Positions 1 through 22,570 of a DNA stretch of 64,000 bases are shown here, piece after piece; position 1 is the first letter of the stretch; every line of letters begins with the position of its first letter. Made by a program: the position numbers and the translations under genes. The DNA lies in assembly GCA_043800255.1 (NCBI GenBank), contig JAZDNF010000013.1, forward strand, positions 128,001 to 192,000, in the 5' to 3' direction. Origin of the DNA: Candidatus Altiarchaeota archaeon (GTDB lineage: Archaea > Altiarchaeota > Altiarchaeia > IMC4 > SCGC-AAA252-I15). The notes below the pieces were generated by a model. It saw nothing but the letters and a program-made list of their open reading frames with translations, was not told where the DNA came from and did not search any database.

Positions 1-266
1 GATTTTGACCACCATAGGAGAGAGTTATTTTTAACGCTTAATTCTCCAACATAGTTGATATATTTCTGGCGCAGAATGTTGGCAGTTTCCTGTATTTTTT
101 CCGAAATATCGATTCTCTGACCGTTATTTCCAATCGATTTTTGGAGAAACAATGCCTTCACCACATCTTCCCCAAGATAAGCCCACCGGAATTGTCTTCC
201 ATGAGTATGTTCTAGTGCCCTGTATACGCTTTTCTCCAAAGGCGGGCAGATTATAACCTGCATCAT
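1..266 (-). CDS. Partial ORF running off the left edge; putative surface carbohydrate biosynthesis protein
   Basis: Read by hand: ATGATG at 266-261, open to the edge (MMQVIICPPLEK...LRQKYINYVGELSVKNNSLLWWSK). Starts 4 nt after the aldolase stop, same operon. Confidence 0.6.
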   Translation of the reverse strand, partial: MMQVIICPPLEKSVYRALEHTHGRQFRWAYLGEDVVKALFLQKSIGNNGQRIDISEKIQETANILRQKYINYVGELSVKNNSLLWWSK

Positions 267-270
267 CAGT

Positions 271-1047
271 TCAATCAGATAGTTTCTTGAATTCCTTGAC
301 TACGTCCTTAAATTCGTAGTATAGAACTGCACAGTCTACGAAGTAGGTAATGAATTGGAACCCAAGATCTCTTAGGAGCCGTATCTCTTCAAGGTTATGG
401 GCAAGTGACCCGACCGCAATACCCTTGCTATGGATTTTTTTGGCATTTTTTTTCATGAATTCCAAGACTCGGAGGTCGTTCACCTTGCCGGGCTTTCCAA
501 CAGCCTGTGATAGGTCGTACTGTCCGATGTAGATGACATCAATGTGTTTCTCATCTATTATTTTATCGATGTTCTTCATACCCTCGACTCCTTCAACAAT
601 GAGAACCGTCATAGTCTCCTCATTTTCATTTGCAGCATGAGACTCAATGTTGTCTCGAGAGTAACCACCAGTCCGCGTATACGGTGTGAATCCGCGCTTT
701 CCTATGGGAGCATATTTTGCATTGGATATCGCATGTTTTGCATCTTCTGCATTCTCTATATGTGGGATGACGACGCCATGAGCTCCGATGTCTAAGGCAC
801 TTAGTATCGTTGCTTCATCATTTTTGGCAACTCGTATGATTGGAGTGCAATTCCGTGCCTCTGCCGCCCTTACGCAGTTTTCTGCAGTTTCTGTGCTGAA
901 TGGCCCGTGTTCCATGTCAATGATGACAAAATCAAGACCAGCAGCACTGATAACCTCAACTGCGGTGGGAGAGGGGATGGTACACCATGTTCCCAAGACC
1001 AAGTCACCTTTTTTCAGTCTTTTTTTCAACAGATTTGTTTTGTTCAT
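271..1047 (-). CDS. HpcH/HpaI family class II pyruvate aldolase
   Basis: GLDFVIIDMEHG, ALDIGAHGVVIPH, YAPIGKRG and IYIGQYDLS motifs. Confidence 0.9.
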   Translation of the reverse strand: MNKTNLLKKRLKKGDLVLGTWCTIPSPTAVEVISAAGLDFVIIDMEHGPFSTETAENCVRAAEARNCTPIIRVAKNDEATILSALDIGAHGVVIPHIENAEDAKHAISNAKYAPIGKRGFTPYTRTGGYSRDNIESHAANENEETMTVLIVEGVEGMKNIDKIIDEKHIDVIYIGQYDLSQAVGKPGKVNDLRVLEFMKKNAKKIHSKGIAVGSLAHNLEEIRLLRDLGFQFITYFVDCAVLYYEFKDVVKEFKKLSD

Positions 1048-1055
1048 GTTTCGGA

Positions 1056-1811
1056 TTATGTTATTTTAATTTTGGAGATATCCTTTATAACATACGCGGT
1101 AATTCTTCTCAGCTCTCTTTCAGGGGTTAGACCGCTGCCTACGCCAATTGAAGCCCTTATTTCAGAGTTTAATCCCATTTTCACGTCTGTTATAGCATCT
1201 CCAACCATAACGGTCTTTGATTTGGGTATCCCAAGCTCTTTGACGATGAGGTTAATCATGTCTGGAGCGGGTTTTCCGTTTTTCACACTATCCGCACCGA
1301 CAATATAATCTATCTTCTTTGACAGCATTAGGTGATCCATTATCAATTTGGCTCGGTCCAATTTATCTGTAGTGGCGATGGCTATCTTGCATGAGCTAGT
1401 ATTCAACGCCGTGAACAGGTCATAAAGCCCGTCTAATGGTTTCACTAATTCGTCCAATTTATCATATGAAATCCTGTCAACTTCATTGAATACTCTAAAA
1501 CAGAGGTCATGTGTATTTTGATGTCCGATGTTTGAAAGATAATCAACGGCGGCCTGCATCACAACTTCCCTCTTTTTCAGACCGACTGGACCCTCTGACC
1601 TTATCCTTCTGTTTTTTTCATCTATCCCCATCGCATACATAAGCTCTTTTTTGTGTTTTGAATTTATTCCCAACCGCTCACAAATAAGTTCAGCGCGATA
1701 TCTCACCATCTGAGACCAGTAAGTGTAAACATCAATCAAAGTCCCATCTCTATCGAATATCATGAGCCCAACACCTTCTATTTTTTTACCATCTATACCC
1801 AAATCAACCAT
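1056..1811 (-). CDS. HAD-superfamily phosphatase (Gph-like)
   Basis: Motif I FDRDGTL, IATT, GKPAPD, MVGDAITD. Confidence 0.9.
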   Translation of the reverse strand: MVDLGIDGKKIEGVGLMIFDRDGTLIDVYTYWSQMVRYRAELICERLGINSKHKKELMYAMGIDEKNRRIRSEGPVGLKKREVVMQAAVDYLSNIGHQNTHDLCFRVFNEVDRISYDKLDELVKPLDGLYDLFTALNTSSCKIAIATTDKLDRAKLIMDHLMLSKKIDYIVGADSVKNGKPAPDMINLIVKELGIPKSKTVMVGDAITDVKMGLNSEIRASIGVGSGLTPERELRRITAYVIKDISKIKIT

Positions 1812-1838
1812 GATATTACCTTGTGTGGATAATTTATT

Positions 1839-3215
1839 TCAAAAGTTTTTCTTTATTTTCCTCAAAATATTTGTAACGATACTATTTTCTCCGAATAGTG
1901 CAATTATCCTCTTTTTTATTATCCTCTTGTTTATTTTGTAAGGATATATAAGAATTTCCCAATTTTCATAATAATATCTAAGTTTTTCTTTATACTTTTC
2001 GGGATAGTTTAAAACAGTATCTCTTCTCTCATTTGAAAAATCCTCGTACATTTTTTGATTAACTAAACCCTTTGAGAAAGAGTAATCACCAAGCACGGTC
2101 CCTTTGTAGGGGTAATATATACTCACGCCGCTATCTGTTGGTCTAATTTTTCTATTTAATTTTATAGTATCCCCTAGCATATCCTCGGTTTCACCGGGAA
2201 CTCCAATTATATTAAAAGCACAAGTCTCAATTCCATATTTTCGACAAAGACTGAATACCATAATAATTTGTTCATTAGAGATATTACGGTTCATTATTGT
2301 ATTTCGGACATACTCATTCCCAGATTCTATTCCAAATAAAATTCGATAACACCTTGCTGCTTTGAGTAATTTTATAAATTCTTCATCAACCACGTTTGGT
2401 CGCAATAAACATATAAATTTGATATTAATCTCTCTTTTATATTTCTCACAAAATTCTTTTCCCCATTTTTTGTCTAAACCAAACGTGTCGTCTAAAAACC
2501 AAACTGTATCGAATTTATATTTTTCAAGTGCATCTTTAATTTCATTGATACATGAGTCTACAGACCGATACCTAAGCGTATTATGCGACATCCCATAACG
2601 TTTAGCAAGAGCATGATTACTACAATAGGAACATAGATAGGGGCAGCCCCTTGAAAACAAAAATGGTGCATATCCGTTTATTTCTATAAATTCCTCGAAC
2701 AAAGAATCTTTTATCGGATAGGGTAGAATATCAAGGTGTCGAATTAGGGGAGTAAGTGTGTTTATAATAACTCTACCGTATTTTCTATATGCAAAGTTAT
2801 TTGTATCTCTGTAATCCTTGCCTTCATTGATTTTATCTAAGAAATCGCTGAACGCCAACTCTGATTCGCCAACGAAAATGCCATCGATATCCGTAGTTTC
2901 CAACAAGGCATCAGGATATAATGTCACATGGACCCCCCCCACGACAATAATTATTTTTTCATTAACATCTTTTATCAGTTTTGCCAATTTTTTAACACAA
3001 TTATATTGAGATGAAACCGAAGTAAACCCAACAACTGTTGGATTAAAAGAATTTACCTCTTCAATCAATTTATTAAATTCATTTTCTTCGCGTATTGATA
3101 GAATTTTGACATTATATCCCTTGTTTTTAATATAACTGGCAATGCTACTAATGCCAAAAGAATAGGGCACTTCATGAAACCCACTAATATTTGTAATGAC
3201 AAGTAAAACATTCAT
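1839..3215 (-). CDS. Cobalamin-binding radical SAM protein (class B methyltransferase-like)
   Basis: N-terminal B12-binding domain (VVGGVHVT, GESE), SRGCPYLCSYC, DDTF, GIESG, IIGVPGET. Confidence 0.9.
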   Translation of the reverse strand: MNVLLVITNISGFHEVPYSFGISSIASYIKNKGYNVKILSIREENEFNKLIEEVNSFNPTVVGFTSVSSQYNCVKKLAKLIKDVNEKIIIVVGGVHVTLYPDALLETTDIDGIFVGESELAFSDFLDKINEGKDYRDTNNFAYRKYGRVIINTLTPLIRHLDILPYPIKDSLFEEFIEINGYAPFLFSRGCPYLCSYCSNHALAKRYGMSHNTLRYRSVDSCINEIKDALEKYKFDTVWFLDDTFGLDKKWGKEFCEKYKREINIKFICLLRPNVVDEEFIKLLKAARCYRILFGIESGNEYVRNTIMNRNISNEQIIMVFSLCRKYGIETCAFNIIGVPGETEDMLGDTIKLNRKIRPTDSGVSIYYPYKGTVLGDYSFSKGLVNQKMYEDFSNERRDTVLNYPEKYKEKLRYYYENWEILIYPYKINKRIIKKRIIALFGENSIVTNILRKIKKNF

Positions 3216-3225
3216 TTTAAGCTTG

Positions 3226-4218
3226 TTATCTCATATTATCCAAAATCAATTTTTCAGCCGTTGAAACCGCCTTTTCAATAAGTTTTATATTACCCTGAAA
3301 ATCTTTCTTGCCAATGTGGTCCTTGATTATTTTTCTTGCAAATGTTCCGATTGCTACACCATTTATCTCAACACCGCATAATTTTGCGAGTTCCCCAGTC
3401 TTACTGTTCGTTCCGCCTGATGCAGTAACAAATACGGGTATTTTACTCTTCCGTATAATGTCTGCTATTGCGATTGTCTGCAATGTTGTGTTATAGTCAT
3501 CTTTTCCCCCGCTCATCGGGGCGCCATCTGCTTGTATTACGAGCCTGCTCCCGCTTATCTCATAAACCTCCTTTATCCTCCTGATTAGATGTGTGTCAGA
3601 CAGTTGGGATCTGTCGAGGCACATGCTTATAAAATTGTTGGGTATTAGGGAGTCTATGACCCCCCAGTCTGCCATAACCGCATTATCATCTGGAATAATG
3701 GCATGAAGCTCTAACGTTTCTGTCCCATTCGCTATGCATTCTGGGAGTATTCTGTCAAAATCAACTTTTCTATTGTAGAACTCTACAGCCTTCTGTCCGC
3801 ATACTCGCTCACAGGCTCCGCAGCCGATACACCTGATCTCTTGGATGATAAAATCGTTGTTTATTGCACCCTGCAGACACGCCTCCAAACACTTGCCGCA
3901 TTTTATACATATATTATATTTAATTCTTGCCTTGCGGACATGAGGATCACCTTTCAGGCCAACGCTTACGTTTATGAACGGCCTAATTTTGATTTTCCGT
4001 TTTAATTTTGGGGCGAGTTCCTCTGCCTTATCCAACGCCGTTACGGCACTCTTAACAACATCCACATTCGCTGAAATGTCAATTGCCGTAGCTCCGGCAA
4101 GTGCATAAACCAAGGTTAGCTTATACACCTCTGCTGGATCTTCGTTTCCCGCACCACAGACTACTTTAAAATATTTTCCCTTTTGGAAAATTCTTTTTAA
4201 TTCCTCGTATCTGCTCAT
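3226..4218 (-). CDS. LdpA-family Fe-S protein (2x[4Fe-4S] ferredoxin insert plus LdpA_C barrel)
   Basis: YFKVVCGAG...YALAGATAIDI, CIKCGKCLEAC and CIGCGACERVC, ELH, QADGAPMSG, SGGTN, GVAIGTFAR. Start placed at the ATGA overlap with the kdsB stop (4218). Confidence 0.8.
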   Translation of the reverse strand: MSRYEELKRIFQKGKYFKVVCGAGNEDPAEVYKLTLVYALAGATAIDISANVDVVKSAVTALDKAEELAPKLKRKIKIRPFINVSVGLKGDPHVRKARIKYNICIKCGKCLEACLQGAINNDFIIQEIRCIGCGACERVCGQKAVEFYNRKVDFDRILPECIANGTETLELHAIIPDDNAVMADWGVIDSLIPNNFISMCLDRSQLSDTHLIRRIKEVYEISGSRLVIQADGAPMSGGKDDYNTTLQTIAIADIIRKSKIPVFVTASGGTNSKTGELAKLCGVEINGVAIGTFARKIIKDHIGKKDFQGNIKLIEKAVSTAEKLILDNMR

Positions 4219-4967
4219 TTCACGTACTGCTGCCATATTTTGTCCTTCTTCATTAATCCCTTAACAATCTCCAACTCTTCGGGAGTGTCAACAGACTGCG
4301 TATCATGGTCCACTATGAATGCCTTCATCTTATAACCGTGTTCCAGAATCCTGAGATATTCTATGTATTCGATTTTTTCAAGTGGTGAGAGACCCCATCG
4401 CGCATATTTAATGAGAAAATCCTTCCTGAAGGAAACTAGGTTGTAAAGTTTGAGAAGTTTATCATGTTTTACCCTAGCCGTAGACGGTATATCCTCACGA
4501 GAGAAGTACAATATTTCATCGTTGAGGTTTACAACAACCTTGCACTCGTTGATATTGTTGAATTGATTTGTTCTACACAGCAATGTCGCTGCTTGTAGGC
4601 CTTCATCCTCGATTAATGGCCGCACGACCTTTGATATATCCTCAGGCATTACAAGCGGTTCGTCCCCCTGAACATTTACCACTATCTCACAGTCTATTTC
4701 TTTGACAGCTTCTGCAATCCGGTCAGACCCTGTTCTGTGCTCCTTTGAGGTCATTACAGCCTGCCCTCCGTGTTCCTCTATCACCTTACATATTTCTTTA
4801 GAATCGGTAGCCACATATACTAAATCAAGATCCTTACATAGTTTAGCTCGTTTCATGACATGGACTATCATAGGCAAACCGAGTATATCCTTCAGCGGCT
4901 TGCCGGGAAATCGACTTGACTCAAGTCTTGCAGGTATTACACATACGACCTTTTTATCCTGTATCAT
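4215..4967 (-). CDS. kdsB: 3-deoxy-manno-octulosonate cytidylyltransferase family (CMP-Kdo synthetase-like)
   Basis: IPARLESSRFPGKPL, HRTGSDRIAE, VNVQGDEP, LEKIEYIEYLRILEHG, SVDT. Confidence 0.9.
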   Translation of the reverse strand: MIQDKKVVCVIPARLESSRFPGKPLKDILGLPMIVHVMKRAKLCKDLDLVYVATDSKEICKVIEEHGGQAVMTSKEHRTGSDRIAEAVKEIDCEIVVNVQGDEPLVMPEDISKVVRPLIEDEGLQAATLLCRTNQFNNINECKVVVNLNDEILYFSREDIPSTARVKHDKLLKLYNLVSFRKDFLIKYARWGLSPLEKIEYIEYLRILEHGYKMKAFIVDHDTQSVDTPEELEIVKGLMKKDKIWQQYVK

Positions 4968-6664
4968 ATAACACCTCCAACATAATAGTTTTCAAACGAT
5001 GTGGGAGTTATTATCTTAAAGGGTTCCATCTTGGCCTTTATTTGGTACTGGTATAGTTTCTGTAAGTCTTCTTCCATCTTCTCCTGCAGCGTTGACTCGG
5101 TTTCCAATCTTGAAACATAATCTCCCTTGTAGAAATGTGCGGATTTCTTCTTGCTTTTGTAGCCATCCATTCCAGCGATATAGATGCTCTTAGCACCCAT
5201 CACAATTGCTAGAGGTATCATCAATATGACAACGGTTGCTGGCTCAGTGTATATCACCCCGCCTTTAATGTCGAAATCATCTTTTGATAGATATTGGATT
5301 GCCTCATAGTCCAGGTTAGGATTCAACTGCTTGACGTGCTCGTGCAGATAACTACCTATCATCAACTTTGAATGCTTGTCGACTGTTGAGATGTATTTTT
5401 TAAATCTCTCGAAGTCGTTGAATATGTGGTACGTCGGTATGAATTTCTTCCCTAGGTAATTAGAGCCGAGGACAATCGGATTTTTCTTTTTGATGAACTC
5501 CTTTATCTTTTCCTCATACTCATTCAATGATGGACCATTTGCGATTATAAGAAAATCCATCCCTTTGTGCCGGTTAACATACGGGGGCTCATCTATAGGG
5601 ACACTGATCTTTATTTTTGACAAATCAACAGGAACATCGGATCGCTTGTCTAAAATCACCGTCTTGTCGATGGCTTTCTGAAGAAGATCCTTGTCAAAAC
5701 CCACGGTAGTCATGTTCTTTAGAGTTGATAGTATTGAGAACACATCTCGCATAGAATATCCCCTTTTCATCAATTCTAAGGAGTATGTTGGGTGGCAGTT
5801 GCTGACGCCTGACAAGAGATAAGGTATGTCATAGCCCCAATGGATATCATATTTTACAATCTTGAGTTCCTTATCAATGAACTCCAGTAGGGGTATCAGA
5901 TCATATCTTTGACTATTAAACTCGTTCAGAAACAATAGGATGGTTTCTATTGGGAGGTTGCCTGCACCCCTTCCCATGCCGTTAATGGATGCATCAATAT
6001 ACTCTGTACCTGCTTCAACGGCAGCTATTGTATTTGCAAATGCTAACTGTAGATTGTTATGTGGGTGAAAGCCAATAACTTTCCCAGTTCCACTCTTGAA
6101 TATTTGAATTAGGTTACTGAGTTCATTTGGTAAAAGAGAGCCAAAACTGTCAGCCAAGTAGATTATGTCAGCGTTTGATGTTCGTATTTTATCAATCGCA
6201 TTTTCGATTTGATTTTGCGTATATTTTGTTATGCCCATTAGATTAAGTGTTACAACATATCCCTCATCAATCAGATCATCTGAGAGTACTATTGCTTCGT
6301 CTAACTCTGGTTGGTAGAAAGCTAACCGGATAATGTCTACTAGTGAGCTGCCTTTTTTTACAAAGTCGTCTTTTTTTATTTTTCCAATATCACCCATAAT
6401 CGAAATCTTTAGGTTTGACTTTTCAGATACTATAGAGTTGATAAACTCCTCAGGTGTGTGTCTCCATATCCCAGTATCCTCCATTACTCCTTTAGTGGTT
6501 CTGTATCCCAACTCCATGATATCTGTTCCAGAATGGGAGATCGCATCATATAGTTTCTTGACGAATGAGTAATCAAATCTCCATTTGTTCAGATGTCCAC
6601 CATCTCGTATAGAACAATCCAATACCTTAACTTTCTTGAATTTTTCGAAAGAATCTGTTTGCAT
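4964..6664 (-). CDS. HMGL-like (DRE-TIM) aldolase fused to a C-terminal DUF115/MAF-flag-like domain
   Basis: LDCSIRDGG, YLADSFG, GFHPHNN, GMGRGAGN; C-terminal IIANGPSL...GAKSIYIAGMDGY. Start placed at MQTDSF. Confidence 0.8.
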   Translation of the reverse strand: MQTDSFEKFKKVKVLDCSIRDGGHLNKWRFDYSFVKKLYDAISHSGTDIMELGYRTTKGVMEDTGIWRHTPEEFINSIVSEKSNLKISIMGDIGKIKKDDFVKKGSSLVDIIRLAFYQPELDEAIVLSDDLIDEGYVVTLNLMGITKYTQNQIENAIDKIRTSNADIIYLADSFGSLLPNELSNLIQIFKSGTGKVIGFHPHNNLQLAFANTIAAVEAGTEYIDASINGMGRGAGNLPIETILLFLNEFNSQRYDLIPLLEFIDKELKIVKYDIHWGYDIPYLLSGVSNCHPTYSLELMKRGYSMRDVFSILSTLKNMTTVGFDKDLLQKAIDKTVILDKRSDVPVDLSKIKISVPIDEPPYVNRHKGMDFLIIANGPSLNEYEEKIKEFIKKKNPIVLGSNYLGKKFIPTYHIFNDFERFKKYISTVDKHSKLMIGSYLHEHVKQLNPNLDYEAIQYLSKDDFDIKGGVIYTEPATVVILMIPLAIVMGAKSIYIAGMDGYKSKKKSAHFYKGDYVSRLETESTLQEKMEEDLQKLYQYQIKAKMEPFKIITPTSFENYYVGGVI

Positions 6665-6781
6665 AATTCTATCAGCTCTTGGGTATATTGTAGATATAGG
6701 TATAAACATAAAAAGTATCTTAAACCTAGCAGTCAACAAAAATGGATTAGTATATCACAATCCACAAATTACAAGTGCTTT

Positions 6782-8296
6782 CTAGTTACTTGAGATAGGT
6801 CGACCAAGTCTAGTCGCTTCTCTCCAGATGTTGACAATCTTCTCTTTTGGGAAATAGGTCAGATAAAACAATCTGATCACAATCATCCATACGATAATAT
6901 ATAGTATGAGTGAAACCCCGCTGTGGAAGAATACGTTCTGAATCTTGCTGGTGTAGGACATATTGACTAAGTATATAATGAAACTGATAGATGGAGGGAG
7001 TAGAATGCGCTGTATAAACCCGATAAATTCTTGCGTATTATAGAACATATAACGTCGAACTGCGTAGAATAGCGTTAGTGCGATAAGTCCTTGTACAGTG
7101 ATAGTTGCCACTGAAACGCCGAGTATTCCATAACCCATTTTGATAACAAGATAATCTAATATCACATTTAGAATCAATCCGGCTATCCAAATCTTGGTAT
7201 TGAGAGTCTGCTTGTTTACAACGGATGATGGGAGTATGACGCCTGGCACACATATAATTGCCATGAAGAAAATGCTGAATGTAAGTATATTAAAAACAGG
7301 TATACTTTCGATGAAGTTAGTTGTTACCAGATGAACTAACAAATAGAAACCTATCTGGCTGATGCCTATAGTCAATGCTGTTGCTATTGACAGATAAACT
7401 GCAATCTTTTGTAACGGTTTGAATCCTTCAATGTGATTTCTCGATTGCCCCAAGCCGGTCCATAGTATCGGCTGTAATACCCCTCCAAATTCAGAGAAAA
7501 ATAGGATAGCGTAGGAGACCATACCCAATGCATAGGAGTAAAGACCCATCTCATGTAGTGGTAGAAAGGCAGCAATCATCGTGCTGTCTGCCATACGATA
7601 ACCCCAATAGGCAATCGTTAACAGCGCCATAGGTATCCCAATTTTCATCAGTTTGACTGTCTCATTCCAGTTTATTTCAAAATGATAATTAATCCCACCT
7701 TTCTGTAGGTAGTATATGAACGCTAATATGGCACCTAATATAGGAGCTAGTAATACTGCGTAAATTTTCAGCCAGAATATTAGTGCTATTGTAACTACCG
7801 GCACGGTGATTCCTTTGATGAGATAGCCAGTTGCTACTTTGTTAAAGTTCTGCCTGGCATGGTTGAAAAGTGACCAGTTATCTGCGTTAGATGATATCAT
7901 ATAGGTCACTGCGGTTAGAATGAGGCCAATCTGGATTATTTTATTGGAATAGAAAAAAGAGGTGCCCAGGATAACAAGGAAGGGTAGAAATGTGTAAAGA
8001 AATTTGCTGGTTATTGAAACGTTTTGTATGTGTAACGCTTTTTCTTTTTCTCCCTTGCCTAACAGGTATGGCACCTCTCTCGAAGCAGCTGACTCTAATC
8101 CAGGGTTTATCAGACCAGCATAGGTAAGCCACAACCCGAGTAAACCGATAATACCGTATTCTTCTGGAACGAGGATCATCGCGACTATAATGCTCTTGGG
8201 TATGGATATGATTTTACAAAAAATGTTTACCGCATTAAATTTAAGAGACTGCCTCAGAACGCTTGATATAGTTACATTGTTTTTTGGTTCCATCAT
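6782..8296 (-). CDS. Oligosaccharide flippase (Wzx/RfbX, MOP family)
   Basis: About 14 hydrophobic segments, ILVPEEYGIIG, D..MIAAFL...MGLYS. Confidence 0.85.
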   Translation of the reverse strand: MMEPKNNVTISSVLRQSLKFNAVNIFCKIISIPKSIIVAMILVPEEYGIIGLLGLWLTYAGLINPGLESAASREVPYLLGKGEKEKALHIQNVSITSKFLYTFLPFLVILGTSFFYSNKIIQIGLILTAVTYMISSNADNWSLFNHARQNFNKVATGYLIKGITVPVVTIALIFWLKIYAVLLAPILGAILAFIYYLQKGGINYHFEINWNETVKLMKIGIPMALLTIAYWGYRMADSTMIAAFLPLHEMGLYSYALGMVSYAILFFSEFGGVLQPILWTGLGQSRNHIEGFKPLQKIAVYLSIATALTIGISQIGFYLLVHLVTTNFIESIPVFNILTFSIFFMAIICVPGVILPSSVVNKQTLNTKIWIAGLILNVILDYLVIKMGYGILGVSVATITVQGLIALTLFYAVRRYMFYNTQEFIGFIQRILLPPSISFIIYLVNMSYTSKIQNVFFHSGVSLILYIIVWMIVIRLFYLTYFPKEKIVNIWREATRLGRPISSN

Positions 8297-8301
8297 TTAT
8301 T

Positions 8302-10260
8302 TTACTCGTTTTTATTTATGATGTCTAGGAGAGCACTAGCCGCCCTGATATCGCTTTTACCGTCATCCAGATGGGTGCCATACATTTTTAAAAATTCTCG
8401 ATTTTTCAAGTCAACATGAGTGTCGAGTTTGCCATCATTCAAAAAGGTGTCTAAAGCCGTTGTGAATTCATTTAGGTTAGGATAACAATATGCGCGACGT
8501 TTTAACAAATCTTCTGCTTCTTTGTCGATATGAAGGTGTCCAGTATATACGAAAATAGGTTTTGTTGTAGTGAGCGCCTGTAGGAGTGTTGTTGAAGGGA
8601 AATCAGTAATTATTATGTCGGATACCGGGAATAGCTCTTGGAATAGGAATTCTGTCCGTATGAACATACAGTTATCATAACCTTGCTTGTCTGCGTATGA
8701 GCGTAGTGGTGTTTCCCGGAACATAAGATTTGGGTGAATTTTTATAAGCGAAAGATAATCTTTTTTCTTTGCAATAAGATCAAGAATTGACGTTTGGGTA
8801 TCCCACAAGCACCTATCGATTAATGGAGGACGCCAAGTCACGTACATATTATTTTGAAGAATGTTTGTTGTAACGTATAGGATAGCTTTCTTGTAATTTT
8901 TTTGCTGTGGATAGTGCCCTAATTCTTTTGAGATGTTTAGGTTCGAGAGTGAGTCCAATGTAGAAGAACCAATAGCCGTGATGACGGTAGCATAATGTTT
9001 AGCAACTTCTTCGTATTTTTTTAGTACTCCCTGCCCATAAACAAAAAGATAGTCTGGAGGTATTACGTCGTAATATACAACCATAGCAGCTTCATGATAC
9101 CCGCAAGAGCCATGCTGCCAACCAATAACCGGTATGCCTAAATTTTGCGATGCTGTTGAAATTGAATTTTCAATGCATGTTGAAAAACTACGGCCAAGAA
9201 CGGCTTGAATTCTTTTCTTCGTTATAGTTTTTACTGCCGTATTATGGACATTTAAGCACAGTGGCGCCAAATCTAGAACTAAAAATTTGAGCCTGTCTTT
9301 GACTATAGGGAAAAAGTTGATGTCATTCCATAAAAAAAATCTGGTAAATTCTGTGTCAGATTCCAATTCGTCCAATACGTTCCCCAAAGCGTGATAATCG
9401 GACGGTTTGAGAAGATTGTTATTAATCCAATATTGTAAATCGTTTTTGATTCTGAAAATCGGGCCTAATCCAGAAGATTGAAGTTGATCTTCAGAAACGT
9501 TCCAATCGTATCCATTTCCGACAATAAGAACTGGCAATTGCGTATCTGCCCCACGATGGCAGCTAAGATTATGTAATGCTAACTTTAGATTTCCTTTTCG
9601 AATGCCCTTAACGAAACTTAAAATACTCGGGTGACTTTCCAAGCAATTTAAAACTCCTTTTTTAATTTCCCTTGATAAGGATATGTTTTTGCGTTCTTCA
9701 AAAGAATTGGTTTTTGACTGATACATGATGCCCAATTTTTCGGTTTTAGTACTCCAATCGGTATCAAGGCCGAGAAGTTTTGAATAAACCGATTCGCAAT
9801 TGTTAAAAAGTAGGTATGGAGCATTTTCAGAAAAACCGAACGGGTATTCCTTAGTACCATAGAAGTAAAGGATATCCGGCGCCTCTCGTTCAATCAATTT
9901 TGATAATTGGAATAATCGCGTTGTTATTGCATCATACACTACCTTGAGGTAATAAAAATTGAAGGATGCAGGTTTTATCCTGAATTTTTTAAAATCTGGG
10001 AGAAAATTTTGAATTTTATTATCGATAATTTTTGAAAACTCTTCAACACGTTGATAATTTTTTAGACCTATTGCGTATAATTCATCTATATCGTAGTAAT
10101 CCTCAAGGGTGCCATAAGGTACCTTATGACTATCTAACTCGTAGACGGCGAATGGAGAAAGTGCTATAATCTCTGGATTACCCTTGAATTTTTCACTATG
10201 GGTTAGATAGTCATTGACTTGTATTTCATCCTCTAGTAATACAATTGATTTTTTATTCAT
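8302..10260 (-). CDS. Putative surface-carbohydrate transferase (GT-B-like, QHG and KxHP motifs)
   Basis: IPVIGWQHG, D.LFVYG, IKIHP, DIIITDFPSTTLLQAL resemble capsule/ulosonate transferase-like families. Confidence 0.55.
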   Translation of the reverse strand: MNKKSIVLLEDEIQVNDYLTHSEKFKGNPEIIALSPFAVYELDSHKVPYGTLEDYYDIDELYAIGLKNYQRVEEFSKIIDNKIQNFLPDFKKFRIKPASFNFYYLKVVYDAITTRLFQLSKLIEREAPDILYFYGTKEYPFGFSENAPYLLFNNCESVYSKLLGLDTDWSTKTEKLGIMYQSKTNSFEERKNISLSREIKKGVLNCLESHPSILSFVKGIRKGNLKLALHNLSCHRGADTQLPVLIVGNGYDWNVSEDQLQSSGLGPIFRIKNDLQYWINNNLLKPSDYHALGNVLDELESDTEFTRFFLWNDINFFPIVKDRLKFLVLDLAPLCLNVHNTAVKTITKKRIQAVLGRSFSTCIENSISTASQNLGIPVIGWQHGSCGYHEAAMVVYYDVIPPDYLFVYGQGVLKKYEEVAKHYATVITAIGSSTLDSLSNLNISKELGHYPQQKNYKKAILYVTTNILQNNMYVTWRPPLIDRCLWDTQTSILDLIAKKKDYLSLIKIHPNLMFRETPLRSYADKQGYDNCMFIRTEFLFQELFPVSDIIITDFPSTTLLQALTTTKPIFVYTGHLHIDKEAEDLLKRRAYCYPNLNEFTTALDTFLNDGKLDTHVDLKNREFLKMYGTHLDDGKSDIRAASALLDIINKNE

Positions 10261-10417
10261 AGATACTTTACCACTCCATTTTAATCTGGTAATCTCCTAT
10301 AACTTAGGATTAATTCGTTTGCCATCTTTGCTATATAGGGGCAAAATTGAGGCCTAATATCCCACAAATTAAATGTCAACGTGAGGGATAACCCAAAGAG
10401 GCATTAGGTAATAAGCT

Positions 10418-11935
10418 TTATTGCATTTTAAGGATGCTCCTAGCTACACGTCTTATTGCTTTAGGTATGCTCGTTTTTATCCAATCCGGAATTGTGTTTC
10501 CTAGGTAGACGTAGAGCGCATATATGTAATAAGTCTTAGGTTTTGTCTTCTTATGGTAATATAATTTTAATTCTTCTCTCATAATTTGACCCCAATGCCG
10601 CCATACTTTGTCAGGCTCCTTTGTCAGATTAATTAAAGGTGCCCCCCCATGCTCAGCAACGAAATCGAGATATTCTTCAACATCTTGGACAAGTTTATTT
10701 TCTTCAACATATCGCCAAATAGGGGTCTCGGGTAGAGGAACCAGGTAGTTCAAAGAGAATTTATATGCGTCAACATCTTTTAAGAATTGGATTGTTTCAT
10801 AGATTGTTTCTGTCGTTTCTTTTGGGGATCCTATGACCAACTGTACGCAACACGCCATTCCCAAGTCTAATGTCAACTTGGTTATTCTCCTGTTTTGCTG
10901 GGAGCTTATACCTTTTCTATACTCTCTCAAGATTGTGTCTGAACCGGATTCCTGGCCGTAATCGACTTCAATACATCCAGTTTCTTTCAGCCGGATAAGC
11001 ATTCTCTCGTCAACCTTATCCGCTCTTGCACCAGGTACTACATAGAAAATATCAAGATTGTTCTTTTCTATCGCATCACACAATTCCATAACCCAACCAT
11101 AATCTGAATTAAACAATTCGTCATAGAAATAAAATCCACTGACCCCATATTTTTCCTTGATATATTTTATGTGGTTAGTCACATAATCCACACTATGTCT
11201 CCTGACTCCCCGGACATGCCTATAACAAAAAAGGCATCTGTTGGTACAGCCTGAAGACGTAGGAATCTCAATGTAGTGTGTTCTCGACCCCACCCGCGCT
11301 CTTGCATTGGAAATAATCGAATCACTAAGGAGTAAATCTTCATACATTTCAAGCCGATTCTTTACTGGGGACAGATACCGAGATACATCAATGAGCTGGT
11401 ATGCAGGAAATGGAATTTCGTCTAAATCTTTTATTTGCTCGGCAGGATCGTTTCTTACAGCCCTCCCATCTAGGGGATAGGATAGTCCAAGTATGTCATA
11501 TATCGTTTCCTTTTTTTCAAATCTCCTCAAAAATATAGGGAGGCTGACATCTGCTTCGCCATGGAAGACCACATCTACTTTGGTTTTTGTAAGCAATAAT
11601 TCATAAACGGATGCAAGAGCCCCACCGGCAATTTGCACAATTTTGGGGTATTTGCTCTTTATATGTAAAGATAATTGTTTGGTTCTCCCATAGGATGTTG
11701 CAATACCCCCGTAACCTATGATGGAAGGTTTATAATCTTCTATAATTTTATCAATTTTATCAAAGAAGTGGCCATTATCAAACTCTCGGAGTTCAATATC
11801 ATCCAAGTAGGGGTCTATTATTCTCGCTTGGTGACCGCATCTTTCGATTATTGATCCCACATATAATAAACCCCAAGGCACTCCAAACCCCGCAATTCCT
11901 CTGCGGGAGGGCACGTTTATCAGTAATATGTTCAT
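10418..11935 (-). CDS. Cobalamin-binding radical SAM protein
   Basis: PWGLLYVG, IAGGAL, GCTNRCLFC, DELF, GQESGS, IGSPKET; GAGGT RBS before ATG 11935. Confidence 0.9.
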   Translation of the reverse strand: MNILLINVPSRRGIAGFGVPWGLLYVGSIIERCGHQARIIDPYLDDIELREFDNGHFFDKIDKIIEDYKPSIIGYGGIATSYGRTKQLSLHIKSKYPKIVQIAGGALASVYELLLTKTKVDVVFHGEADVSLPIFLRRFEKKETIYDILGLSYPLDGRAVRNDPAEQIKDLDEIPFPAYQLIDVSRYLSPVKNRLEMYEDLLLSDSIISNARARVGSRTHYIEIPTSSGCTNRCLFCYRHVRGVRRHSVDYVTNHIKYIKEKYGVSGFYFYDELFNSDYGWVMELCDAIEKNNLDIFYVVPGARADKVDERMLIRLKETGCIEVDYGQESGSDTILREYRKGISSQQNRRITKLTLDLGMACCVQLVIGSPKETTETIYETIQFLKDVDAYKFSLNYLVPLPETPIWRYVEENKLVQDVEEYLDFVAEHGGAPLINLTKEPDKVWRHWGQIMREELKLYYHKKTKPKTYYIYALYVYLGNTIPDWIKTSIPKAIRRVARSILKMQ

Positions 11936-11978
11936 AGAATTACCTCTGCAGGCTATCATTTACTTTGGAGTATCTCAA

Positions 11979-13037
11979 TTATTTGTGGTCTATCCTGTCC
12001 CAGAATATGACTTCATCCTCGTTAATATCCTTTCTTGTCTTTTTGCCTACAAGATCATTTAAAAATTTTGGCTCGATGCCAGTTCCAGGTCTTTTAATGA
12101 CGATCATTTTTTGGGTTATCTTTGTTCCTTTTGGTATGAACAGTTTTGCCACTAGGCTCCTTCTTGCAAATTTTCGTGCTTTATTCTCTGATTTTGTAGG
12201 TTTTTTTGTTTTGATCCCCATTGCCTTTTCTAAGACTCTGAAGCTATTTACAATATTTCTCAAATCCTCATAATCCGCCGATATCTCATGGTCATAGCCG
12301 GGTCTACTTTTATCAAAAGTGAAATGTTTTTCAATTACCTTAACGCCCATTGCAACAGCAGCAGTTAGTACATAGAGACTTTCAGGCATTTTAGTATGGT
12401 CAGAATATCCGACGGTATGTTGTGGAAATTTCTCAATTATATCCCTTATCATGTTTAGGTTTACATCCTCGATTTTTGTCGGATAGTTGGTGGTACAGTG
12501 TAGTAGGATAATCTGACCATTACCCTCAGACTCAATAATCTCGACAGCCTCCCGTATCTCATCGATTGTTGATGCTCCAGTGGAGAGGATTATCGGTTTC
12601 TTCTTTTTTGCTATATGCCTTATGAGAGGATGATGTGTTATGTCCATGGAACTAATCTTGTAGATGGAAACTCCAAGCTTCTCCAGCATATCTGCCGATT
12701 CCTCATCCGCAGGCGTCGAGAATAACACTATACCTGCATCATCCGCAACCTGCTTCAACTCCTGATACTGATTGAAACTAAGCTGTGGCATCTCATTGAA
12801 CTCTTCATACTGAGTCTCTCCAGGGCATCCTTCTATATCCCAGAACTTCGGCGCATCCCTTGTTACGAGCTTGTCAGGGACAAATGTCTGGAATTTTACA
12901 GCATCTGCACCCGCCAGAGCAGCCTCTTTTACCATTTCCTTTGCACGCTCAAAATCATTTTCAAAGTTGCATCCTATTTCGGCAATGACAAAAACAGAAG
13001 CTCTGCCAGTAATATCTTTAAGTAGATTATTTTGCAT
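11979..13037 (-). CDS. neuB: NeuB-family nonulosonic acid synthase (PseI/LegI/SpsE-like) with C-terminal SAF domain
   Basis: VIAEIGCN, GADAVKFQT, KISS.D, LHCTTNYP, GYSDHT, IEKHFT, RRSLVA, KRPGTGI. Confidence 0.9.
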   Translation of the reverse strand: MQNNLLKDITGRASVFVIAEIGCNFENDFERAKEMVKEAALAGADAVKFQTFVPDKLVTRDAPKFWDIEGCPGETQYEEFNEMPQLSFNQYQELKQVADDAGIVLFSTPADEESADMLEKLGVSIYKISSMDITHHPLIRHIAKKKKPIILSTGASTIDEIREAVEIIESEGNGQIILLHCTTNYPTKIEDVNLNMIRDIIEKFPQHTVGYSDHTKMPESLYVLTAAVAMGVKVIEKHFTFDKSRPGYDHEISADYEDLRNIVNSFRVLEKAMGIKTKKPTKSENKARKFARRSLVAKLFIPKGTKITQKMIVIKRPGTGIEPKFLNDLVGKKTRKDINEDEVIFWDRIDHK

Positions 13038-13067
13038 TTTTTATGCCTGATTTTCTATATGAGTATT

Positions 13068-14039
13068 TTAAAAGATCTCTGTGGAGTCCCCCATCGTAAA
13101 ATACCAATTCATATTATCTTTAATTTCTTCTGCATAATCAAATTGTTTATTCATGCGTATAACAAGAGGGATTTTAGTGTTTTCTTTGGAGAATCCTTTT
13201 TCCTCTAAAACCTCTTCAAATAATGGATTCCCCCATATCCAGCAAGTAACTTCATCAACATTATGTTCACTGAAAAAATTCAAACTTCCATCAACAAGTT
13301 TATCTAATGTATCTTTATCACCAGAACAGGTGAAAACATCTAATATGTGTCCCCTAAGGATCTTATCTTCTCGATAAAGCTTTAAGACAGTATACCCCCC
13401 GAGAGTTTTACCTTTGTATACTCCAAAGGGGAAATATTTCCAATCTGGCCGTTGTATATACCTCCAATTTAGATAATTTTTGTTTCTGACAACAGCGATT
13501 TTGTAGTCTTTACGACAGGAATCCCAGAGGTTATCAAAATCATCACCAAATTTGTCAATCTTGTGAAAACCGGGCAGCTCCTGTTTACCCACTAGGTTAG
13601 GTTTTGTTATTTTAAGGGCATCAAAAAAAATCAGATCAGAATACCCCATAAATCCTTTGTGAAGCGTATAGGAGCGTTTGTTGGGAAATCCGTAAGTGAC
13701 GGGGATATTGTTTTCTTTTAGATCTTCAAACAATTTATCGCTAATAAATTTTAAAAGACCTCTGTTTTGATATTTACTTTCGACCAGGGCGGCAATCGTG
13801 TGAGAGGCAATAATCTCTTCGTCAAAAACTTTTAGTCTAAACGGAACAGCTGCAAAATGGGCGATAATTTTCTCATCTTCTGTCATAACCCAAATGAAAG
13901 ATTTTCCCGAGGGATTGGCATCGGCATACTTCCAATACCAGTTGCTTAAATCGGTTCTGTTCCAAGGATGATCTTCCAGTCGCCTATCCAACGCCAAAAT
14001 TTCTTTTTCATCCCCCTTTTGATATGGCCTAATTTCCAT
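13068..14039 (-). CDS. Tandem GNAT-fold N-acyltransferase
   Basis: WYWKY..NP, V...YQNRGL, YGFPN, R...YLNWRY; GGTG RBS before ATG 14039. Confidence 0.75.
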   Translation of the reverse strand: MEIRPYQKGDEKEILALDRRLEDHPWNRTDLSNWYWKYADANPSGKSFIWVMTEDEKIIAHFAAVPFRLKVFDEEIIASHTIAALVESKYQNRGLLKFISDKLFEDLKENNIPVTYGFPNKRSYTLHKGFMGYSDLIFFDALKITKPNLVGKQELPGFHKIDKFGDDFDNLWDSCRKDYKIAVVRNKNYLNWRYIQRPDWKYFPFGVYKGKTLGGYTVLKLYREDKILRGHILDVFTCSGDKDTLDKLVDGSLNFFSEHNVDEVTCWIWGNPLFEEVLEEKGFSKENTKIPLVIRMNKQFDYAEEIKDNMNWYFTMGDSTEIF

Positions 14040-14110
14040 GATTCGCACACCATATAACATATATTTTCGTATTTAAGACGTATAAGCCCCACACAAAAAA
14101 CAAAGGAGTT

Positions 14111-15193
14111 TTACAGAGCCATTTTTCTCATATTGGATTTATCTATTGAGGTGGAAGTGATTATCTTGGATAATCTTTCAGAACCCAAGCCGTCGGTAAT
14201 TCTTTTTGCATTTTTACTAAGTGAAACACGTTTCTTCTTATTCCCTAGTAGGTCTTTTAAAGAGTCTGCTATCAGCTCTTTTGGGATATCCGTTCCAATC
14301 CCTAAGTTTATTACTGCATTCTTCCGGGCGAAAATTTGGGCTACAGTATCGTGTAGTTTATGATGACCGATAACAATTGATGGAACTCCGAATATCGCCA
14401 GTTCATAGAGTGTATTACCGGCTGCGGTTATGGCGATATCACTTTCAGCCATGAATTTATACATTTGTCCTTGTGTAACATCCCATTCAAATTGATAAAC
14501 ATTCTTCAACTGGGATTCCAAAGATCGGAGTTCTTTTCTGTGTTTGGAAGACACAGCATGGCCGACTACAACAATTATTTTCTGTTTTAAATCCAGAAGC
14601 TCTAGTGACTTGATTATTTTAGATGTCAGACCATGAGGGTCCTCACCACCTTGATTTATAAAGATAGTTTTAGAGATTTCAGATATCCTTTTCTTTTTTT
14701 TCCATTCCTTGTGTAATATTTCTGGGAGCAACATATATTCTGGGTCGATACAGTATAAGGCTTTGCTCTTGGAAAATTTTTTATAAAATTTCTTGTTTTG
14801 AGCGATACTAAAATTGACTACTATATCCCCCGGAATCGCCCCGTGTTTATCGTCATCAAGAATAACTACTAAGAGTTGACTTGAATCCTTTAGGGTCTGA
14901 AAATAATCAGTATTCTTGTTCAAAAGATCGCAAATTAAAATTTCGATGTTTGATTTTTTGATAAACTTCAGTATAATGTCTATTTCTTTTTCTTCGCTTA
15001 TGTCCTTATCCAATTTTTTAACATGATAATTTTTTTCTTTTAAAATATTTACTGCAGGTGAAAAATTTTTTGTTAAAAAAAGGATGTTACAGTCCTTTCT
15101 TTTTTTTAGACTGTCTGCCAGCACAATGGATTCCATTAAGTGCCCCATACCAATTTTCTTACCGGCATCTACTCTAAAACAAATGTTCACCAT
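14111..15193 (-). CDS. pseG: PseG/SpsG-like UDP-sugar hydrolase (GT28-like fold)
   Basis: FRVDAGKKIGMGHL, GGED, SDIAITAAGNTLYEL...GVP, DGLGSER. Confidence 0.8.
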   Translation of the reverse strand: MVNICFRVDAGKKIGMGHLMESIVLADSLKKRKDCNILFLTKNFSPAVNILKEKNYHVKKLDKDISEEKEIDIILKFIKKSNIEILICDLLNKNTDYFQTLKDSSQLLVVILDDDKHGAIPGDIVVNFSIAQNKKFYKKFSKSKALYCIDPEYMLLPEILHKEWKKKKRISEISKTIFINQGGEDPHGLTSKIIKSLELLDLKQKIIVVVGHAVSSKHRKELRSLESQLKNVYQFEWDVTQGQMYKFMAESDIAITAAGNTLYELAIFGVPSIVIGHHKLHDTVAQIFARKNAVINLGIGTDIPKELIADSLKDLLGNKKKRVSLSKNAKRITDGLGSERLSKIITSTSIDKSNMRKMAL

Positions 15194-15199
15194 CTCGGA

Positions 15200-15865
15200 T
15201 TAGTTCCACTTATCGCGTATAACAACAAAGGCTTCCGCCGCTTTAAAGCCCACTTCAGTACCGCGTTTTATGGCTAAAATTTCTACACTCTTGTCAGAAC
15301 GGGGGTGTGGGAAATCCCTTTTTTCAGTCTGATAGCATCGCAATGCTTTGATTTTAGTCTCTAGATATTTTTCTATGTTTATGTAGAAATTAGGTAGAAA
15401 TGCAAGTTCGCTAAGATTGGGGGATTGTTCTGTCGATGATGGAGTCTCGTAGGATAATATCTTTTTAATTCCGAGATTTGCAAACGGTCTCAATGCAATC
15501 ATCGCCGCCTGGAACACAGCCCTATGGTCCTGATGGTTATCTCCTCTGTGGGTTACATACACGGTTTCGGGCTTAATCTTATTAACATATTGTTCTAATG
15601 GGATGAGTATGTCTTGGATGGAAACATCCAATCTCTCATCGTTTAAATTGAAAAATTCCGCCTCCTTGTATCCTAACACCTTTTTAGCTTTTAGGGCACA
15701 TTGAACTTCGATTTTATTTTTTTCATCGTTGAATTTGTGGTCATAGATGCGGTGCGCGATGAAACAAACGTATACTTCATCTTCCTCTGAGACGTGTCTT
15801 GCGATTGTTCCACCCATACCTAAAACCTCGTCATCCATGTGGGGTGCAATTACGAGTATTTTCAT
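15200..15865 (-). CDS. PIG-L/LmbE family N-deacetylase
   Basis: APHMDDE.LG.GGT, H.DH, YETPSSTE, PHPRS, AEAF. Confidence 0.9.
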   Translation of the reverse strand: MKILVIAPHMDDEVLGMGGTIARHVSEEDEVYVCFIAHRIYDHKFNDEKNKIEVQCALKAKKVLGYKEAEFFNLNDERLDVSIQDILIPLEQYVNKIKPETVYVTHRGDNHQDHRAVFQAAMIALRPFANLGIKKILSYETPSSTEQSPNLSELAFLPNFYINIEKYLETKIKALRCYQTEKRDFPHPRSDKSVEILAIKRGTEVGFKAAEAFVVIRDKWN

Positions 15866-16965: not shown

Positions 16966-16980
16966 GGCTTCTCACTAATT

Positions 16981-22156: not shown

Positions 22157-22570
22157 CTACATTGCCCTATTTCTTCTAAAGATAATAGCAACCGCAACAG
22201 CCAAATTAATGGAATGGGATAAGCTTATACGGATATCGAACTCGCCCGTATTATGGTTTAATAGTTTGCCTAAAGGGGTGCCCTTGTCGTCATTTATAAT
22301 CTCGACTTCGTTATAGGCTATTTTCTTGTTAAACGATGACAATGCTTTTACGACTGCTTCTTTTCCTGCAAATTTGGCGGCAAAATGTTGAGAGGGTTTT
22401 GATTTGCCCATACAATATTTGATTTCCTTTTCCGTAAATATTTTTTTTAGGAATGCATTATCTAGACTAGTATCTTCCTCGAACCTAGAGGTATCAACAC
22501 AGTCGATACCGATTTCCACATCAGTAATTCCTAATGCCCGGGAGGGGGGGGTCATATTTTCTTTTGACAT
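22157..22570 (-). CDS. acpS: Holo-ACP synthase (phosphopantetheinyl transferase)
   Basis: IGID.V, IFTEKE..YC, FA.KFAGKEAVVKA, G.P, ISLSHS. Confidence 0.9.
   Translation of the reverse strand: MSKENMTPPSRALGITDVEIGIDCVDTSRFEEDTSLDNAFLKKIFTEKEIKYCMGKSKPSQHFAAKFAGKEAVVKALSSFNKKIAYNEVEIINDDKGTPLGKLLNHNTGEFDIRISLSHSINLAVAVAIIFRRNRAM

Follow-up and report, generated by a model that had tools for sequence, protein, structure and literature searches.

The LdpA-like protein encoded on the minus strand at 3226..4218 of the DNA analysed here is a core part of a widespread gene cassette, in which it stands beside pyruvate-type aldolases, a phosphatase of the HAD family and a KdsB-like cytidylyltransferase. 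The DNA, referred to below as the window, is a stretch of 64,000 nucleotides from a Candidatus Altiarchaeota archaeon (assembly GCA_043800255.1, contig JAZDNF010000013.1, positions 128,001 to 192,000). Our preferred reading, held with moderate confidence, is that the LdpA-like protein is an iron–sulfur-coupled barrel enzyme which acts, together with an aldolase/Maf-like partner, on a phosphorylated keto-acid or sugar-acid intermediate and passes its product to the HAD phosphatase. The predicted fold, the position of the iron–sulfur insert within it, the conserved residues, the gene linkage and a set of natural fusions carry this reading; from them we infer that the barrel is catalytic, that its substrate is phosphorylated, which way the electrons flow and in what order the steps occur.

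The LdpA-like protein and its predicted fold

The open reading frame (ORF) at 3226-4218 translates into 330 amino acids (aa) free of internal stops and ends in a stop codon at 3226-3228. At its start junction, GTGAAATGAGC, the start codon (ATG at 4218) and the TGA of the upstream KdsB-like gene (4215-4967) overlap in an ATGA, as a first-pass annotation made from the sequence had described. An alternative in-frame ATG is present at 4236, but 25 close homologues begin at the 4218 position. The same annotation had recognized an LdpA-family protein with both CxxCxxCxxxC motifs and the QADG, GGTN and GVAxG motifs, and translation and Pfam agree, the protein being full-length: the cysteine motifs are CIKCGKCLEAC (residues 104-114) and CIGCGACERVC (residues 130-140), followed by QADGAPMSG (229-237), SGGTN (267-271) and GVAIG (287-291). 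The search with the Pfam LdpA_C model (PF12617) that it had recommended gives a match at 49.7 bits against a gathering cutoff of 22.2, and the C-terminal half scanned alone scores 51.9 bits. Two matches to Fer4-type models cover residues 97-151 (above cutoff are Fer4 at 31.2 and Fer4_7 at 35.9 bits), the specific LdpA ferredoxin model PF25160 remains below its cutoff (13.9 versus 27.6 bits), and DUF561 (PF04481) matches residues 6-57 at 22.4 bits against a cutoff of 21.6.

The NCBIfam equivalog model for the clock protein, CircClkLdpA (NF045992), aligns residues 11-308 to model positions 9-328 of 360. The score of 146.4 bits falls short of the curated cutoff of 450 bits and the host is archaeal (PolD DP2 at 333.9 bits; an NreA-like protein encoded in the window), so the protein, judged by its sequence, is a true member of the LdpA family yet no orthologue of the clock protein. 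LdpA of Synechococcus elongatus PCC 7942 and its orthologues (NF045992, PF12617, PF25160) are colinear with it over the whole length and have the same barrel and two-cluster insert, and the predicted structures of cyanobacterial protein clusters match the Atlas model of the LdpA-like protein with template modelling (TM) scores, by query, of 0.77-0.96. It differs from the clock-like LdpA representatives in sequence (26-28% identity), in lying in the other half of the family tree, in its archaeal host and in having sugar-acid genes as neighbours.

Sequence searches indicate a family that is large, mostly non-cyanobacterial and spread over many bacterial and archaeal phyla; a 2017 survey, in the part available to us, had described LdpA as exclusive to cyanobacteria (PMC5520375). 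With E 0.001 as the limit, a word-indexed search returned 1523 homologues; the top 120 share 56-89% identity with the query, and the named ones among them belong to Margulisiibacteriota, Saganbacteria, WOR-1, Omnitrophota, Schekmanbacteria, Syntrophorhabdaceae, Euryarchaeota and Methanomicrobiaceae. An exhaustive search of 50%-identity cluster representatives gave 695 with E no higher than 0.001, 85 of them with E no higher than 1e-30; none of the 55 full-length representatives scanned reaches the clock-LdpA cutoff, three coming near it at 322-394 bits. On a quick, unrooted tree of 131 rows the LdpA-like protein belongs to a starred set of 32 rows, 29 of them cassette loci, and the clock-like representatives P0209, P0267 and P0270 occupy the opposite half. 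Rooting with 13 DUF561 sequences was tried and rejected: the outgroup joined the long branch P0185, which was flagged as long-branch attraction, and no root is claimed. A feature search of the Protein Atlas gave no usable named match outside the LdpA families; phage records gave no tblastn match and a viral structure library gave generic barrels only. A search of sequencing runs found one DNA run with 0.05 of the sampled words, and no RNA run was among the matches listed.

The AlphaFold model, built from a 96-sequence alignment (mean predicted local distance difference test score, pLDDT, 97.0; predicted TM score, pTM, 0.94), is a (beta/alpha)8 barrel with strands at residues 16-20, 45-49, 81-87, 168-172, 197-201, 226-231, 263-267 and 287-290 and helices between them. 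In this model the ferredoxin module (residues ~95-151) sits between beta3 and alpha3, and the barrel topology places it on the predicted catalytic face. SGGTN follows beta7, while G287...G291 and R295 flank beta8 and the following short helix; SGGTN and GVAIG are thus the predicted phosphate-binding loops of beta7 and beta8, the usual site in such barrels. The likeness of the SGG...GVAIG segment to a TIM-barrel phosphate motif, remarked on in the first-pass annotation, is borne out by this placement in a barrel modelled with such a score. On the minus strand of the window, beta1-beta3 (residues 1-94, with K18, C21-GAGNED, D47, S85, D91 and H93), supported by the model, the DUF561 match and conservation, occupy 3937..4218; the ferredoxin-type insert for two predicted [4Fe-4S] clusters (residues 95-151), supported by the Fer4-family matches, occupies 3766..3936, with its Cys motifs at 3877-3909 and 3799-3831; and beta4-beta8 (residues 152-330, with E170, H172, Q229-A-D231-G, SGGTN, G287, G291 and R295), the part matched by LdpA_C, occupy 3229..3765.

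When a verified DUF561 protein, which consists of the barrel alone, is aligned with the family profile by hhalign (probability 95.3, E 2e-8), it covers both barrel halves and leaves out the insert; the LdpA family is thus a barrel of the DUF561 type into which a ferredoxin module has been inserted. DUF561/Ycf23 (PF04481), found in cyanobacteria and plastids, shares with the LdpA-like protein the barrel, a Lys after beta1 and the glycine loops, but has no ferredoxin insert and was not found in the cassette. In the parts of the literature on DUF561/ycf23 that were available to us, no functional study was found.

A site-by-clade table shows all eight cysteines of the insert to be invariant in 54 cassette-group rows and in seven Sericytochromatia rows; in the other clades each of the eight is kept in 26-30 of 27 or 30 rows. 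Conserved in every clade are K18, D47, S85, D91, H93, K96, E170, H172, Q229, D231, G268-G269, G287, G291 and R295, and these residues, glycine loops included, are common to LdpA and the LdpA-like protein. The conserved barrel residues sit in the model at or just after the C-termini of the strands, that is, on the catalytic face. CGAGNED, C161, C200 and D202-R203 are specific to the cassette type.

Searched against the PDB with an exhaustive aligner, the model finds its best match in a 2-keto-3-deoxy-6-phosphogluconate (KDPG)/2-keto-4-hydroxyglutarate aldolase (8di1; Z 18.2, root-mean-square deviation (rmsd) 2.8, 208 residues aligned), followed by hexulose-6-phosphate synthase (9lj9; Z 17.5), homocysteine methyltransferase and NeuB/PseI barrels (Z 16.5-17.1), and ribulose-5-phosphate epimerase, deoxyribose-phosphate aldolase (DERA) and NanE (Z 15.8-16.7). 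Old yellow enzyme (8j59; Z 15.8, rmsd 4.2) lies below the best sugar-phosphate barrels but within 3 Z units of them, and flavin barrels with iron–sulfur clusters reach Z of about 15 with rmsd 3.9-5.0 Å. Dihydropyrimidine dehydrogenase/PreA, 2,4-dienoyl-CoA reductase and IspG resemble the LdpA-like protein in joining a TIM barrel to [4Fe-4S] clusters; 2,4-dienoyl-CoA reductase (1ps9, Z 15.1) and naphthoyl-CoA reductase (6qkg, Z 15.2), in the same rmsd range, rank below the small sugar-phosphate barrels. The clusters of the LdpA-like protein are carried by an insert after beta3, whereas those of these barrel oxidoreductases are in a terminal domain. No single match stands apart from the others. 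Foldseek against the PDB gave generic phosphate-binding barrels only, and a sequence search of solved structures with the whole protein gave matches to ferredoxin domains only. Of the comparison with flavin mononucleotide (FMN) barrels proposed in the first-pass annotation, the TIM barrel itself is predicted, but FMN barrels and sugar-phosphate barrels cannot be told apart by the fold matches, and the predicted ligand of the phosphate loops may be either FMN or the substrate. A class I reaction of the KDPG type finds no counterpart in the model despite the best fold match: strand beta6, which we take to be the position of the Schiff-base lysine in KDPG-type aldolases, carries Q229-A-D231 and no lysine.

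Non-redox enzymes (KDPG aldolase, hexulose-6-phosphate synthase, ribulose-5-phosphate epimerase, DERA and NanE, Z 15.8-18.2) are the nearest in fold, which favours a barrel enzyme without redox chemistry: an isomerase, epimerase, lyase or enzyme of the aldolase type whose substrate is a sugar phosphate or keto-acid phosphate and whose clusters are structural or serve as a redox switch. The barrel-only DUF561 protein, which has no ferredoxin module but retains the glycine loops as well as the Lys, Glu and Gln-x-acid positions, points in the same direction. The cysteines, however, are invariant throughout the cassette group and nearly so elsewhere, which is more than a dispensable ornament needs, and we regard a non-redox enzyme as rather unlikely.

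The cassette in the window and in other genomes

Genome searches gave 465 confirmed hits, of which the best 80 loci were kept for neighbourhood counts; these 80 are biased towards the cassette type by the two patterns searched for, VCGAGNED and S[VI]G[LM][KR]GDPH. When the proteins of the window were sought by tblastn within about 10 kb (coverage 0.5 or more), the HAD phosphatase was found in 56 of the 80 loci, the HpcH aldolase in 50, and the KdsB-like enzyme and the aldolase fusion in 49 each. The neighbourhood analysis outside cyanobacteria that the first-pass annotation had called for therefore reveals tight linkage to kdsB-like, HpcH and HAD genes. ORF calling identified the LdpA-like ORF in 75 of the 80 loci, and 53 of these 75 are cassette loci, the criterion being that no fewer than two of the four partner families lie within 6 kb; they are spread over numerous phyla of bacteria and archaea. 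In the usual arrangement the aldolase fusion is followed by the LdpA-like gene, HAD, HpcH and the KdsB-like gene, and then by a protein of ~615 aa whose C-terminal motif is GT-B-like. In 45 of the 53 cassette loci a HAD enzyme is encoded directly after the LdpA-like gene; directly before it comes the aldolase fusion in 34 of 51 loci and HpcH in seven of the 51, and the GT-B-like gene is present in 35 of the 53. Of the 22 cassette-free loci, 18 belong to Sericytochromatia, Gastranaerophilales and uncultured bacteria related to them, two belong to Prochlorococcus, and the other two break off a short way from the LdpA-like gene. A literature search found no paper on the cassette, on the fold of LdpA or on non-cyanobacterial LdpA homologues.

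Natural fusions of the aldolase, Maf-like and LdpA-like parts in one chain form 13 protein clusters of 882-892 aa, in which residues 4-495 correspond to the aldolase/Maf-like protein and residues 540-883 to the LdpA-like protein (47% identity). One member occurs on 17 contigs from several sources, and so the fusion is real. Such a fusion would also suit a regulatory subunit, and cyanobacterial LdpA is reported, in the parts of two publications available to us, to sense redox through its [4Fe-4S] clusters and to alter the abundance of CikA by a mechanism given as unknown (PMC13421787, PMC6378743). A redox sensor of this kind would have a non-catalytic barrel, and the state of its clusters would gate the activity or stability of the aldolase/Maf-like transferase. 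In all clades, by contrast, it is on the catalytic face and the phosphate loops that conservation is centred, a pattern that speaks for ligand binding or catalysis, and the close homologues, drawn from across phyla, are as similar (56-89%) as expected of a tightly constrained enzyme. A mere sensor is, in our judgement, quite improbable.

The cassette genes of the window all lie on the minus strand, separated by gaps of no more than 27 bases or joined by 4-base overlaps, and form one tight operon. The aldolase fusion (4964..6739) joins an HMGL/DmpG-like aldolase barrel (Pfam HMGL-like, 91 bits) to a Maf/MptE-like nucleotide-binding domain (MptE-like, 26.7 bits) and matches a 'putative aldolase' in the PDB (3dxi, E 2e-45). 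Its C-terminal domain, modelled alone (pLDDT 84.7), has as best fold match the Maf glycosyltransferase 5mu5 (Z 14.9), followed by an archaeal pterin pyrophosphokinase (8sd5, Z 11.8) and sialyltransferases (Z 8-11); it may be a transferase of the cytidine monophosphate (CMP)-linked acid or a kinase. The KdsB-like cytidylyltransferase (4215..4967), the stop of which overlaps the LdpA-like start, matches PRK13368 at 268.6 bits (cutoff 255) and TIGR00466 at 170.1 bits (cutoff 155.2). Beyond the LdpA-like gene come a B12-binding radical S-adenosylmethionine (SAM) enzyme, an optional member of the cassette (1839..3215; Pfam B12-binding 77 bits, Radical_SAM 92 bits), the HAD-IA phosphatase (1056..1811; HAD_2 92 bits), an HpcH/HpaI-type class II pyruvate aldolase (271..1047; Pfam 99 bits, TIGR02311 150.5 bits, PDB 4tv5 at E 8.5e-37) and, as sixth cassette member, the start of a 619-aa GT-B-like protein (1..266; contig C14:126407-128266). 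The gene for the last extends past the start of the window, and a profile made from 40 locus proteins matches its product at 540 bits (E 3.7e-165). The aldolase, HAD and radical SAM neighbours named in the first-pass annotation are thus recovered by Pfam and NCBIfam scans. It was also right that the window contains no kai gene: the 19 matches to the KaiC family (PF06745) in the genome, all single-domain ORFs of 188-388 aa, lie outside the window (contigs C2, C5, C7, C8, C9, C13, C14, C16 and C17), and 15 of them score 117-220 bits.

The radical SAM gene of the window begins 10 bases past the LdpA-like stop, and B12 radical SAM enzymes require a low-potential reductant. Both facts count for a dedicated electron carrier feeding this enzyme, the role offered in the first-pass annotation, or another enzyme of the cassette. 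A radical SAM enzyme similar to that of the window was found by tblastn in 24 of the 80 loci. Of the 53 other cassette loci, 19 have a B12 radical SAM gene within about 10 kb, which again suits a carrier, and seven have one inside the cassette; in none does it adjoin the LdpA-like gene, and 34 lack it. As the two genes adjoin only in this window, the electron-donor proposal is left unsupported. A barrel of 275 residues with conserved polar residues would, moreover, be superfluous for a carrier, and the natural fusions join the aldolase/Maf protein and no radical SAM enzyme. We attach very little probability to this role.

Marine cassettes (Pelagibacteraceae and Prochlorococcus) hold a second LdpA-like paralogue of 273-299 aa that directly adjoins the full-length gene (L063:9072-9971, L070:5980-6840, L071:1108-1929, L072:11021-11872, L073:11038-11877 and L074:11095-11964). 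This degenerate paralogue lacks the ferredoxin insert, its CGAGNED and QADG motifs are lost, and it may be a pseudo-enzyme partner. The occurrence of an insert-less paralogue in a cassette speaks for the non-redox barrel enzyme considered above; the loss of both motifs speaks against it, since these paralogues are hence no simple active barrels. At three other loci a thiamine pyrophosphate-dependent, acetolactate-synthase-like enzyme is encoded near the LdpA-like gene (L018:10156-11964, L056 and L053); L018 and L056 have neither an HpcH nor a KdsB-like gene, and L018 has a short-chain dehydrogenase/reductase and a C-methyltransferase alongside.

None of 40 relatives (20 from the same family and 20 from the same order) has a homologue at E 1e-20 or better. 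The GC content of the glycan block (1-18132 of the window) is 38.7%, against a genome value of 50.2% and a value of 48.9% in the remainder of the window. The cassette is horizontally mobile, and composition and distribution suggest that here it was most likely acquired by transfer. No KdsA-family gene (PF00793) is found in the cassette or in the genome, which is 93% complete, and a second CMP-transferase near NeuB can serve the NeuB module; for these reasons the cassette should make its own acid. That second nonulosonic-acid module (window 10418-16965) encodes a B12 radical SAM enzyme, NeuB, a GNAT protein, a PseG-like protein, a PIG-L deacetylase and a SPASM radical SAM enzyme, and a second CTP_transf_3 gene lies at about 22.8-23.2 kb of the window (region 22552-23187). 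A 652-aa protein at 8302-10260, which is unrelated to the GT-B-like family of the cassette, has only a weak TagF-like match (19.3 bits), and L006 (27% identity over 654 columns) is the one locus of the 80 that holds a homologue.

The proposed reaction and its setting

The cassette would probably make a 3-deoxy-2-ulosonic-type acid from pyruvate by aldol chemistry, and this acid would probably then be activated with CMP and transferred to a surface glycan. Within such a pathway the beta7 and beta8 loops of the LdpA-like barrel would grip the phosphate of a phosphorylated keto-acid or sugar-acid intermediate, which the barrel would alter with electrons passing via the two clusters, whether by reduction, deoxygenation, oxidation or a redox-dependent rearrangement. 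The barrel would work physically with the aldolase/Maf-like protein, and the HAD enzyme would afterwards strip the phosphate from the intermediate. Of the sugar-acid redox enzyme suggested in the first-pass annotation, it is 'an enzyme of a sugar-acid pathway' that stands as the best reading, on the strength of the linkage to HAD, HpcH and KdsB-like genes and of the barrel.

The enzymes of the pathway to 3-deoxy-D-manno-octulosonate (Kdo) are KdsD, KdsA, KdsC and KdsB, and we know of no iron–sulfur protein among them. The cassette is like the CMP-Kdo pathway in that its KdsB-family enzyme passes the NCBI cutoffs for KdsB and that a phosphatase and a C-C bond-forming enzyme are present. It is unlike it in that two pyruvate-type class II aldolases replace the phosphoenolpyruvate (PEP)-dependent KdsA and that the phosphatase is of the HAD-IA type rather than the KdsC (IIIA) type. 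Minimal cassettes, with HpcH, LdpA-like, HAD and KdsB genes, parallel KdsA, KdsD, KdsC and KdsB; this is a point in favour of the non-redox enzyme, which would then occupy the precursor-supply slot of KdsD, a placement that is part of the same explanation and no less unlikely.

A second parallel is DmpFG, the 4-hydroxy-2-oxovalerate aldolase/acetaldehyde dehydrogenase, in which the aldehyde is channelled between the subunits. The cassette likewise couples a DmpG-like barrel (1nvm, E 6.5e-23) to a second, possibly redox, protein, and compared with the DmpFG pair the coupling goes as far as natural fusion. The partner in the cassette, however, is an iron–sulfur barrel, whereas that in DmpFG is an NAD-dependent dehydrogenase.

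Several points weigh against an iron–sulfur-coupled enzyme working on a phosphorylated intermediate of this pathway. As all four Cys ligands are present in each cluster, the clusters can only relay electrons, and no terminal redox site (flavin, metal or third cluster) was identified in the LdpA-like protein. HpcH and DmpG-type aldolases usually take small unphosphorylated aldehydes, a poor fit to a phosphorylated intermediate. The predicted fold gives no reaction, as the matches at Z 15-18 include many unrelated barrel enzymes, and a profile of the C-terminal half searched against solved structures gave two chance matches with E above 1 and no solved relative. Finally, the cassette is absent from all 18 loci of Sericytochromatia, Gastranaerophilales and related bacteria, and so the LdpA family is not tied to the cassette pathway alone.

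Bearing on the clock protein

LdpA has been known for over twenty years as an iron–sulfur protein of the clock input. A 2026 review, in the parts available to us, describes it as a redox-sensing iron–sulfur protein and calls its mechanism unknown (PMC13421787). An LdpA-family match is present in 80 of 81 sampled genomes of Cyanobacteriota, 27 of the 81 lying above the clock-LdpA cutoff, and many of the genomes below the cutoff are about 2 Mb in size; DUF561 is present in 37 of 41 sampled genomes. All 61 genomes of the picocyanobacterial order fall below the cutoff of 450 bits. Fifty-eight of them have only a clock-like LdpA (283-335 bits, one gene being split), three have only the cassette type (G001, G014 and G027, at loci L113, L114 and L094; 116-126 bits) and none has both. 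In the two of these three that were looked at, G014 and G027, the cassette-type gene adjoins KdsB-like genes, accompanied in G027 by HpcH and HAD genes and in G014 by a homologue of the aldolase fusion and a HAD-like gene. In these picocyanobacteria the cassette-type paralogue may have replaced the clock-like gene, or may reflect loss of the one and gain of the other.

The surroundings of the clock-type gene were compared at 12 diverse cyanobacterial loci (L119, L121-L131) and at picocyanobacterial loci (L115-L118). A gene for a SpoIIIAA-like AAA, PTPase and R3H protein follows ldpA in 11 of the 12 diverse loci, and ndhN lies upstream in four of the 12 and in both annotated picocyanobacterial loci. 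A HAD-like gene follows clock-type ldpA in two picocyanobacterial loci. Pairing with a HAD gene as a trait of the whole family was considered and rejected, there being no HAD protein among the 39 neighbours scanned at the 12 diverse loci, and no tblastn match there to the HAD enzyme of the window.

It is possible, and we put it forward only tentatively, that the whole LdpA family, the clock-input protein included, is a ferredoxin-coupled barrel enzyme turning over a phosphorylated small molecule. This would fit the conservation of the putative active-site residues in clock-like sequences, the presence of an LdpA-family gene in nearly all the sampled Cyanobacteriota genomes when only a third reach the clock cutoff, and the division of the picocyanobacteria into those with only the clock-like type and those with only the cassette type. 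If this is true, the effect of LdpA on the clock would come from a metabolite or an enzymatic redox reaction and not from passive 'sensing', and the cassette would be the first context to point to the chemistry of LdpA, namely keto-acid or ulosonic-acid metabolism beside pyruvate aldolases and a phosphatase.

Mass spectrometry has yielded unassigned CMP-linked alpha-keto acids, in the parts of a preprint available to us (bioRxiv 10.64898/2026.04.20.719630); no link between these compounds and the cassette is claimed. Glycobiology gains from the cassette a candidate for a new, PEP-independent, iron–sulfur-dependent route to a CMP-activated acid, and clock research gains a concrete hypothesis, that of LdpA as an enzyme, with named residues.

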